A DNA stretch of 13,543 nucleotides from assembly GCA_040904565.1 (NCBI GenBank), contig JBBDTI010000076.1:7028-20570 (forward strand), written 5' to 3'. Shown here in pieces: positions 11,923-13,510 of the stretch; positions within the stretch are counted from its first letter, which is position 1; each line of letters begins with the position of its first letter. Under the pieces are notes generated by a model. It saw nothing but the letters and a program-made list of their open reading frames with translations, did no database searches and was not told the DNA's origin. The DNA is from Rhodothermales bacterium (GTDB lineage: Bacteria > Bacteroidota > Rhodothermia > Rhodothermales > VXPQ01). The position numbers and the translations under genes were made by a program.

Positions 11923-12558
11923 CTATTTCTTCTTGTGGATGGTGACGAAACCGCCTTTCGGACCGGGTATCGCACCCTTGACCAATACGGCGTTCTGGTC
12001 GTCGAGCACGCGGACGATCGCAAGATTGCGGATCGTAGTCCGCGCGTTCCCCATGCGGCCGCCCATCCGCATGCCCGGGAAGACCCGCGACGGATCGGAG
12101 GAGGCACCGATGGAGCCCGGTGCCCGCTCCCGATTGTGCTGACCGTGCGTGCGGCCGCCCACGCCGCTGAAGTTGTGGCGGCGAACGACGCCCTGGAATC
12201 CTTTCCCCTTCGACGTGCCGACGACGTGGACGATGTCGCCTTCTTCGAAGACGTCTACCGCCCTGAGTTCGTCTCCGAGCGTGACCTCGTCGACGTCGAA
12301 ATCGCGCCGGAATTCCACGATTTTCTTTTTCGGCGTCGTGCCCGCCCGGTCGAAATGACCGTGCGCGGCGCTCGTCACGTGCTTCTCCTTCTTCTCACCG
12401 GTGGCGAGCTGAACGGCGTCGTAGCCGTCAGCGCCATCGGCCGACTTAACCTGGGTCACCACGTTCGGCGTGACTTCGACGACGGTACAGGGGATGTTAT
12501 TCCCCGCGTCGTCGAAGACGCTCGTCATTCCGACCTTCTTTCCTATCAATCCACTCAT
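11923..12558 (-). CDS. rplC: 50S ribosomal protein L3
   Basis: [30 protein letters not shown] and VKGAIPG motifs. Confidence 0.99.
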
Positions 12559-12625
12559 TGGAATCGTCTTAAGACTGCTTGATGGAGGCGTCCGGCGGCG
12601 CGCCTCCGGGCATACGGTGCGTCAG

Positions 12626-13081
12626 CTACTTTTCGATGGTAAGGGTAACCGTCCCCTGGTAGATGTCCGTGCCGAACAGACCGTTCACGAAGGCCGCGTT
12701 GGCCGACAGATCCACGCTCGTATCGGTTTGGAACTCATAGCTGAACGGAATATTCTGACCGCTCGGCGGGGAAAGCACGAGCGACTTCGCTCCTTCGTCC
12801 ACCGTGTAGGTACCCGGGATCGTCGTCGGATCGTTGCCGCTTGCGGGCTTATAATCCACGAAAATGGAAAACTCACCGCTCGCGGTCAGCGTCGCCGTCA
12901 ATCCGTTGGCGATCTGACCGAAGAACGGCATGCGGTCTCCCTCTCCATCCTCGAACGCCGTCATGGTCCACGTGCCGACAAACAATTCAGCGTCGGACGT
13001 TTCGTCGTCGGTACCGGAGTCGCACCCGATCGCCACGAGGGCTACCGCCAGTGCGAGACAACATGCAGAAAGCTTACGCAT
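12626..13081 (-). CDS. Hypothetical lipoprotein, probably a lipocalin-like beta-barrel
   Basis: 151 aa. Signal peptide II (MRK, hydrophobic core, lipobox AIG-C20), then an acidic patch DSGTDDE. Lipocalin-like LFVGTW and GTYTV motifs; beta-strand-rich. AGAGGAG ribosome-binding site 5 nt before the ATG. Fills the rpsJ-rplC gap on the same strand. Confidence 0.85.
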   Translation of the reverse strand: MRKLSACCLALAVALVAIGCDSGTDDETSDAELFVGTWTMTAFEDGEGDRMPFFGQIANGLTATLTASGEFSIFVDYKPASGNDPTTIPGTYTVDEGAKSLVLSPPSGQNIPFSYEFQTDTSVDLSANAAFVNGLFGTDIYQGTVTLTIEK

Positions 13082-13086
13082 TTTCG

Positions 13087-13093
13087 CTCCTCT
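13087..13093 (-). promoter_or_regulatory. Shine-Dalgarno site (AGAGGAG) of the inserted lipoprotein gene
   Basis: Minus strand reads TGA-CCCAACCTA-AGAGGAG-CGAAA-ATG. Confidence 0.75.
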
Positions 13094-13102
13094 TAGGTTG
13101 GG

Positions 13103-13414
13103 TCAAACCTTAATTTCTACGTCCACGCCGCTGGGCAGCTCGAGCTTCATGAGCGCGTCGACCGTCTTGCTGCTCGTCGACAAAATGTCGATCAGGCGCT
13201 TGTGACTCCGCGTCTCAAACTGCTCCCGGCTTTTCTTGTCGACGTGCGGGCCTCGCAGCACCGTATAGATCGACTTTTTCGTCGGGAGCGGGATAGGCCC
13301 GCTCACTACGGCACCGGTCGACTTCACGGTCCGGAGAATCTTCTCCGCACTTTTGTCGATCAGCCGATGGTCGTATGACTTCAGCTTGATTCGTATTTTT
13401 TGACTTACGGCCAT
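13103..13414 (-). CDS. rpsJ: 30S ribosomal protein S10
   Basis: [18 protein letters not shown] and [12 protein letters not shown] motifs. Confidence 0.99.
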
Positions 13415-13510
13415 AACGTCGCTTCGCTCCTTCAGTTGGACGGTTGAGGGTGGCGGCTTCCCGGCAGCAAGGCGTTTCCCCTTGCGGACCGTCAGCCGAC
13501 AACCCTATGA
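13415..13510. repeat. Heptamer-based inverted-repeat spacer element (tuf-rpsJ)
   Basis: Left arm CAGTTGGA-CGGTTGA-GGGTGGC (13433-13454). Right arm ACCGTCA-GCCGACA-ACCC (13488-13505). Perfect inner stem GCAAGG (13467-13472) / CCTTGC (13480-13485). Confidence 0.7.

Follow-up and report, generated by a model that had tools for sequence, protein, structure and literature searches.

A lipoprotein gene inside the S10 operon

We analysed a stretch of 13,543 nucleotides (nt) from a Rhodothermales bacterium (assembly GCA_040904565.1, contig JBBDTI010000076.1, positions 7,028 to 20,570), hereafter the window, whose minus strand carries the S10/spc ribosomal-protein cluster, extending from the final part of a tuf-like gene, which lies at the high edge (recognised by eye alone, from its C-terminal residues) through rpsJ to secY and map. 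Between rpsJ and rplC, a pair whose adjacency is among the most stable in prokaryotes, we found an open reading frame (ORF) of 151 amino acids at 12626-13081 (-), hereafter X. Its upstream neighbour is rpsJ (ribosomal protein S10, 103 amino acids, 13103-13414 (-); Ribosomal_S10 E 2.2e-38, NF001861 E 2.1e-48) and its downstream neighbour is rplC (ribosomal protein L3, 211 amino acids, 11923-12558 (-); L3_bact E 2.6e-76, from Pfam and NCBIfam). The spacer from the rpsJ stop to the ATG of X is 21 nt long (13082-13102 (-)) and holds a Shine-Dalgarno-like AGAGGAG at 13087-13093, 5 nt 5' of the ATG, and the spacer from the X stop to the ATG of rplC is 67 nt long (12559-12625 (-)) and holds a G+C-rich hairpin (arms 12584-12590 and 12601-12607) with no U-tail. 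A first, sequence-only reading of the window had described an intact frame of this length 21 nt past the rpsJ stop, on the same strand, behind an AGAGGAG site, and all of these are present on the minus strand, which that reading had left unnamed.

Both junctions of X are bridged with 0 differences by contigs of two further runs (12506-13148 and 12547-13500), one of which is possibly a source sample, the run covering 12547-13500 being the more independent of the two. Together with the same gene order in 19/19 related loci, several of them in single-contig genomes, these contigs rule out a misassembly and settle the question of junction integrity that the earlier reading had raised. A short contig of a third run, with two matches of 20-27 letters set 219 other letters apart, was taken as another organism and left unused. 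X is a genuine gene and not a chance frame, being conserved, under purifying selection and modelled with a predicted local distance difference test (pLDDT) of 91. We conclude that the arrangement is a real, conserved and lineage-specific variant of the S10 operon.

The N-terminus of X reads MRKLSACCLALAVALVAIGC-DSGTDDE and has the layout of a lipoprotein precursor. Residues 1-19 (13025-13081 (-)) would form the signal peptide, consisting of basic MRK, 14 hydrophobic residues and the lipobox A-I-G-C, of which Cys20 (13022-13024 (-)) is predicted to be lipidated and to start the mature protein. The layout is kept in 20/20 orthologues, and a helix spans residues 4-17 in the structural model. Cys20 is invariant in 20/20 orthologues and in all 135 aligned family members. 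Furthermore, the genome encodes Lgt (LGT E 3.7e-38) and two LspA homologues (Peptidase_A8 E 3.1e-35 and 2.3e-29), and X is a lipoprotein-type precursor by these features, a predicted substrate of Lgt and LspA. Residues 21-33 (DSGTDDETSDAEL, 12983-13021 (-)) make up an acidic tether that resembles the lipoprotein export signal (LES) in its charge count and has low pLDDT, and residues 34-151 (12629-12982 (-)) are modelled as a lipocalin-like eight-stranded beta-barrel with a C-terminal helix. The AIGC lipobox, the DSGTDDE tract and the GTW and GTY motifs (residues 36-38 and 90-92) noted earlier can all be read in the protein.

Upon modelling X with AlphaFold2 on a 135-row alignment, we obtained a pLDDT of 91.2 and a predicted template modelling (pTM) score of 0.77, with eight strands and a helix at residues 129-136 before the last strand. 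Residues 1-30 have a pLDDT of 66-74, which suggests a flexible tether. The conserved barrel motifs are G36-x-W38, G90-T-Y92 and F113-x-Y115, with G36 and W38 invariant in 20/20 orthologues and kept in at least 90% of the 135 members. In a search of 48,161 structure representatives the first match was 4qrl (Z 11.8, root-mean-square deviation 2.0 over 93 residues), followed by cockroach milk lipocalin, 4gzv, a DUF4822 protein and potempin E (Z 10.0), and then by Blc (Z 8.6) and the NlpE N-domain (Z 7.6); 30 chains reached at least Z 8, mostly lipocalins and lipocalin-like proteins. Foldseek likewise returned lipocalins and Bacteroides lipocalin-like proteins, including 4gzv, 4qrl and Bla g 4 (template modelling score 0.57), and the protein atlas matches fell in Lipocalin_4, Lipocalin_5, DUF4923 and DUF5004 clusters. 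When the family profile was searched against the sequences of solved structures, no match was significant (best E 0.11). Among the 135 family members, Lipocalin_4 is matched by 42 (E <=0.01) and DUF5004 (PF16395) by 12, and X itself has no DUF5004 match at E <=1. According to the model, X folds as a lipocalin/calycin-type eight-stranded barrel, and the lipobox with Cys20, the AlphaFold barrel and both the Foldseek and the structure matches bear out the earlier description of a lipocalin-like lipoprotein.

The closest structural counterparts of X are Bacteroides lipocalin-like proteins (4qrl BACUNI_01346, 4gzv BACOVA_00364, 4i95 and 3hty BT_0869), which share with it the small eight-stranded barrel, the phylum and a Lipocalin_4-type signature. 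4gzv aligns with X at Z 10.8, whereas the identity of 4qrl/4gzv-type proteins to X is only 13-16%. These structures come from structural genomics and have no function assigned, so none can be transferred to X, and we know of none of these proteins that is encoded inside a ribosomal operon. E. coli Blc (1qwd) is, like X, a lipid-anchored lipocalin barrel of the Gram-negative envelope, but the sequence of X does not match the Lipocalin_2-type family. Blc, which faces the periplasm, is induced in stationary phase, the opposite of a gene wired to ribosomal-protein synthesis. Potempin E of Tannerella forsythia (8ehc and 8ehd), a protease-inhibitor lipoprotein, has a small lipocalin-like barrel like that of X (Z 10.0 and 9.7), with an identity of 12-14% and an N-terminal sequence match that is not significant (E 1.7). 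Potempins are encoded beside their target proteases, and unlike them X has no adjoining protease gene. Finally, the passengers of the spc operon (secY, adk, map and infA, of which secY and map lie in the window) resemble X as non-ribosomal genes fixed in a ribosomal operon, secY being envelope-related as well; they are near-universal and essential, whereas X is confined to the class Rhodothermia in our samples and has been lost repeatedly.

Distribution and inheritance

We next consider the rpsJ-rplC interval in relatives. With X as the query, a match was found in 35 of 41 genomes (the 40 nearest and its own), and rpsJ, X and rplC follow one another on one strand in all of the fetched related loci. 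Within its own family X adjoins rplC in 17/18 relatives, the exception being a genome whose contig stops 144 nt beyond rplC. The other families of the order account for 22 of the 40 nearest genomes, in which a slot homologue is present in 15, absent in 6 and beyond judgement in 1 that is too fragmented; one of the 15 is a divergent lipoprotein of 193 amino acids that was missed by the X query alone. The six genomes lacking a slot gene have rpsJ-rplC gaps of 41-263 nt with no ORF. X is found at the same position across the lineage, and the caveat on novelty attached to the earlier reading applies to that extent.

When extending the comparison to the class (121 genomes, of which 112 have both rpsJ and rplC), we examined 52 further Rhodothermales. 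Their rpsJ-rplC gap exceeds 450 nt in 23/52; an intact lipoprotein ORF is present in each of the 16 such gaps that were read, and for the other 7 the judgement is based on the length of the gap only. The remaining 29/52 have a gap below 270 nt, including all members of families f3 (5/5), f26 (15/15) and f10 (3/3). Outside the order, two genomes of family f27 have a slot lipoprotein of 145-150 amino acids with a GTW/GSW motif, and the other 51 gaps measure about 13-30 nt. At the level of the phylum (131 genomes, 98 of them from other Bacteroidota classes), rpsJ and rplC lie within about 430 nt of each other in 94/98 genomes of the other classes, all 94 gaps having been computed; the four exceptions are a 5-kb multi-gene insert, a 20-kb separation, a pair on different contigs and a case where the contig ends. 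No lipoprotein-like ORF was seen in the 9 that were read of the 14 gaps of at least 237 nt (237-430 nt) in these classes.

Two cases within the order depart from a single intact copy or a plain gap. One genus shows both states, with an intact slot gene in genome G022 (L061) and a 60-nt gap carrying only the rplC stem-loop described below in genome G103 (L047); the latter looks like a recent clean loss of the slot gene, judging by its sequence. In genome G144 (L046), two tandem divergent lipoprotein genes occupy a gap of 1051 nt; both are acidic after the Cys, and the second scores 48.6 bits to the family profile.

The occupied slots that were read hold the same protein family. Our slot set comprises 41 proteins in 40 loci, and the family profile was built from 135 aligned members; 39/41 slot proteins score at least 20 bits to this profile or are clear tblastn orthologues. 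For further slot proteins, profile scores were 20-168 bits in 18/20, and the two f27 proteins reached 14 and 9 bits, at which level we leave their orthology to X open. In a tree of the 41 proteins (a quick maximum-likelihood tree with several long branches), 14 changes suffice for the 15 taxonomic groups, the lowest number possible, as compared to a mean of 23.3 upon shuffling (0/200 as low). Five genomes without a slot gene have only 20-31-bit matches elsewhere in the genome, indicating that the gene was lost and not relocated. The G+C content at third codon positions (GC3) of X is 0.74 and equals the genome mean, so X is no recent acquisition of foreign DNA. The median ratio of nonsynonymous to synonymous substitution rates (dN/dS) within genus g8 is 0.275 for X, as against 0.091 for L3 and 0.025 for S10. 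Taken together, the profile scores, the tree that follows taxonomy, the weak matches elsewhere, the GC3 and the dN/dS fit one early gain in Rhodothermales with vertical inheritance and several losses, and not an exchangeable slot.

Beyond the slot, the family is a small one, with 370 cluster representatives at E <=0.001 among 1.84 billion, and some matching proteins contain the domain in tandem repeats, such as P0005 (557 amino acids, 4 stretches) and P0119 (990 amino acids, 11 stretches). A search of its own genome with X as query gave one weak second match (E 0.0026); an own-genome search with PF13648 recovered nothing, X included, and is uninformative on paralogues. Word-indexed protein searches yielded 3 and 12 matches, none of them named. 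At the protein level, three slot proteins are identical or at least 90% identical to entries from cultured organisms, namely WP_022836576.1 of Salisaeta longa ('hypothetical protein'), WP_166980897.1 of Rhodocaloribacter litoris ('DUF5004 domain-containing protein') and CBH24156.1 of Salinibacter ruber M8 ('Hypothetical protein, secreted' / 'Lipocalin-like domain-containing protein'). Homologues are already deposited, only as hypothetical, DUF5004 or lipocalin-like proteins. Searches of the full-text literature, with subscription journals and supplements outside their reach, turned up no account of a gene for a lipoprotein or a lipocalin at the rpsJ-rplC junction, or elsewhere within the S10 operon, in Rhodothermales or Bacteroidota. 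The protein type is known, and the fixed position inside the S10 operon is the unusual part.

Expression, localisation and rival explanations

X has the features of an S10-operon member, lying on the same strand with short spacers and no promoter or terminator motif between the genes. No match to a sigma-70-type promoter was found in a scan of the rpsJ-X-rplC stretch and no Bacteroidetes-type TAnnTTTG motif near X, the promoter types of Rhodothermales being outside the coverage of these motif scans. Terminator-like matches numbered 3 against 1.9+/-1.5 in shuffles, and the sole one on the minus strand lies inside the X ORF, with none in the spacers, which agrees with the earlier reading of no obvious U-tailed terminator on either side. 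Rfam gave no match at gathering score in the same stretch. Across genus g8 (12 loci), X and rplC are 2-5 nt apart; at the upstream side the spacing ranges from a 4-nt overlap to a few nt, or about 30 nt if a later start is taken, and in 4 of the 12 the overlap of X with the rpsJ stop amounts to 4 nt when the first possible in-frame start is used. Such tight spacers leave no room for signals outside the coding sequence. Because of the tight spacing and the absent promoter and terminator motifs, X is probably co-transcribed with the S10 operon. As for translation, Shine-Dalgarno-like cores of 4-5 nt were found by regular expression before 8/20 window genes, with AGGAG/GAGGAG seen by eye only before X and rplP, and GGAG or GAGG is retained 5' of the X start in relatives L007, L009, L010 and L019. 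Shine-Dalgarno sites are weakly used in Bacteroidota, with which their scarcity in this operon is consistent.

Regarding localisation, we counted the net acidic charge over positions +2 to +8 in 192 lipoproteins predicted in the genome by a simple pattern (LptE is missing from this list). The median is 1, and X reaches +4, a value attained by only 3 of the 192. Net acidic charge is at least 3 in 35/41 slot proteins. Among the controls of the same genome, the count is +3 and +2 for two SusD-like lipoproteins, -2 for BamD and -1 for each of two OmpA-domain lipoproteins; SusD-like lipoproteins are surface proteins in other Bacteroidota, and it is these, not BamD, that X resembles. The tract of X reads C-D-S-G-T-D-D-E and that of most orthologues C-D-S-N-D-D. 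We give about an even chance to X being exposed on the surface of the outer membrane.

Our best explanation combines these lines into an old, vertically inherited S10-operon lipoprotein gene whose product is exported and carries an acidic tether and a lipocalin barrel, and we assign to this account as a whole a probability of roughly 0.6. X would have entered the S10 operon early in Rhodothermales evolution, between rpsJ and the older rplC stem-loop, and would from then on have passed vertically at the same position, with losses in several families. The transcript of X would most likely be part of the S10 operon mRNA, with translation starting from a Shine-Dalgarno site of its own, and its synthesis would follow that of the ribosomal proteins. 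The signal peptide for the Sec pathway and signal peptidase II would be cut before Cys20 and Cys20 lipidated, leaving a flexible acidic tether of about 13 residues followed by the barrel. The exported protein would most likely be anchored in the outer membrane and, because an acidic tract follows the Cys, probably be exposed at the cell surface; there, the barrel would either bind a small ligand, probably a hydrophobic one, or act as an abundant constituent of the envelope. That the modelled barrel binds a ligand is a tentative proposal, which we hold at somewhat less than even odds. An improbable extension is that Rhodothermales hard-wired a surface lipocalin to ribosome synthesis, made in near-ribosomal amounts, which would rank it among the most abundant proteins of the envelope, as a structural or scavenging coat that scales with growth rate. 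As a further possibility, co-translational export through the signal peptide of X, together with secY, may tether the long ribosomal-protein mRNA to the membrane.

Several points weigh against this account, the first group of them concerning the location of the protein. The LES patterns that have been tested are C-X-K-(D/E)2-X and CS(D/E)2 (PMC5080379, PMC6222051), and the X tract matches neither of them exactly. Surface lipoproteins with such signals (SusG, SiaC constructs and MucG) resemble X in having an acidic run directly after the lipidated Cys with a net negative charge; they differ from it in that the tested acidic pair stands at +3/+4 or +4/+5, outside Rhodothermales, whereas the acidic residues of X stand at +2 and +6 to +8 (+2, +5 and +6 in most orthologues). 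The LES-like tract of the sequence-only reading is real, conserved and unusually strong. Additionally, Asp occupies +2 in 40/41 slot proteins and in 112/117 lipobox-bearing family members. In E. coli, Asp at +2 is a signal for retention in the inner membrane, and X could be a lipoprotein of the inner membrane, or one facing the periplasm, in which this near-invariant residue acts in the same way. The slot proteins of the Salisaeta longa and Salinibacter ruber type are non-acidic (net -1), so surface exposure, if real, is not universal, and the charge calibration consists of only 2 SusD-like and 3 periplasm-facing controls. These controls nevertheless include a SusD-like lipoprotein that starts C-E-D, by which an acidic +2 seems no bar to outer-membrane sorting if that protein is surface-located; the periplasm-facing ones (BamD and OmpA-type) are non-acidic, and the E. 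coli sorting rules fail even in other Proteobacteria. We consider a periplasm-facing or inner-membrane location, with Asp at +2 as retention signal, somewhat unlikely. As to the fold, X scores 21.1 bits (E 5.8e-4) against Pfam Lipocalin_4 (PF13648), just under the gathering threshold of 22.4, which places it at the periphery of that family, outside its formal membership.

The second group of objections concerns expression and descent. Co-transcription of X is deduced from DNA only, the very high expression proposed in the sequence-only reading is conjectural, and the codon adaptation of X is ordinary (58th percentile of 2153 long ORFs), although this is a weak measure here, as ribosomal-protein genes span the 16th-99th percentile. 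At the hairpin that separates X from rplC, the mRNA could be processed or transcription attenuated, so that X and the downstream proteins may be made in unequal amounts, and a promoter internal to rpsJ, beyond the reach of motif scans, may exist. Expression of X on its own from an internal promoter or past a partial terminator, in which case it would be neither abundant nor tied to growth rate, would accord with these points, as well as with its own good Shine-Dalgarno site in an operon where few genes have one and with the scan coverage of promoter types. We find it quite unlikely, given the 21-nt upstream spacer and the minimal or overlapping spacers of g8, the spacers free of promoter and terminator motifs, and the read-through across X that rplC and later genes would need anyway. 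The repeated loss of X among the further Rhodothermales of the class sample shows that it is dispensable. That the junction exchanges unrelated cargo, with X as its current occupant, was the alternative offered by the sequence-only reading, and the junction does tolerate insertions, as in the tandem copies of G144 and a 5-kb multi-gene insert in genome G158 of another class, while presence and absence differ within one genus (G022 and G103). The 41 slot proteins read are nonetheless all lipoproteins of this type with a GxW motif, 39 of them clear homologues whose tree follows taxonomy, and X has no mobile-element features that we could see and has the composition of its genome, which makes exchange of cargo very unlikely. 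Lastly, X is lost in many relatives and its status as a gene is argued from sequence, and yet a chance open frame or decaying remnant has a negligible probability, with the ORF intact in every occupied slot read, its motifs invariant, a dN/dS of 0.275, a confident fold and a family of hundreds of cluster representatives. The vertically inherited S10-operon lipoprotein gene is the account that we prefer.

The persistence of an envelope gene in the rpsJ-rplC junction through the radiation of an order shows that the operon tolerates a passenger, and suggests that selection may favour co-expression of an envelope protein with ribosomes. X offers a concrete case, open to testing, in which envelope synthesis may be coupled to growth rate; it also provides a marker trait for the phylogeny of Rhodothermales, with one gain and several losses, and a natural test of whether LES operates in a deep branch of Bacteroidota. 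Since proteins identical or nearly so to slot proteins are deposited for the cultured species Salisaeta longa, Rhodocaloribacter litoris and Salinibacter ruber, experiments are feasible. If X were merely one more lipocalin-like lipoprotein, it would be a curiosity of operon evolution.

The rplC stem-loop and other sequences at the junction

Upon examining the sequence 5' of rplC, we observed a motif shared by the 50-70 nt directly before its start, consisting of GCTTA..AATCCGG, a variable G+C-rich hairpin and GGATT(A/G)CA-ATG. It is carried by relatives with spacers of about 60 nt and also by relatives without X, and its loci include L040:651-700(-), L042:670-724(-), L047:678-729(-), L056:871-919(+), L019:1430-1481(-) and 12 more. 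One pair of the outer stem covaries (C-G in 9, U-A in 7 and U-G in 1 of the 17 sequences). The 67-nt spacer of the window is a diverged copy, in which the hairpin is retained and the outer stem has diverged; the 101-nt stretch around it folds no better than shuffled sequence (z -0.16). Genus g8 has lost the element entirely, with X ending 2-5 nt 5' of rplC. Rfam gave no gathering-score match for the loci carrying the stem-loop. As the stem-loop precedes rplC with or without X, X sits between rpsJ and an older rplC element, which may be a translational operator of rplC.

Other Bacteroidota classes show further sequences at this junction. The insert of G158 (L071) spans 5 kb and holds several genes on both strands, among them an opposite-strand ORF of 178 amino acids with a lipobox-like start and an acidic tract. 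Rfam searches of the long non-coding gaps of these classes gave two chance-level matches and none at gathering score. In family f32 (L066, L067, L072 and L073), the rpsJ-rplC gap measures 255-390 nt by hit coordinates, is without a lipoprotein-like ORF, and contains blocks that appear conserved by eye, namely GAAAAGAGCTCTGA, AACAAGCC.TTC..GGTTTGTTTA, CCGGTACTTCC, GGAAAAGGTCGG and GGGATTGAA; it may be an undescribed leader RNA, for which Rfam gives a chance-level match only. Finally, in family f38 (L064 and L065) we observe a non-coding gap of 400 nt with 23-25% G+C and a hairpin followed by a T-run right after rpsJ, a sequence arrangement which suggests that the S10 operon is split at this gap.

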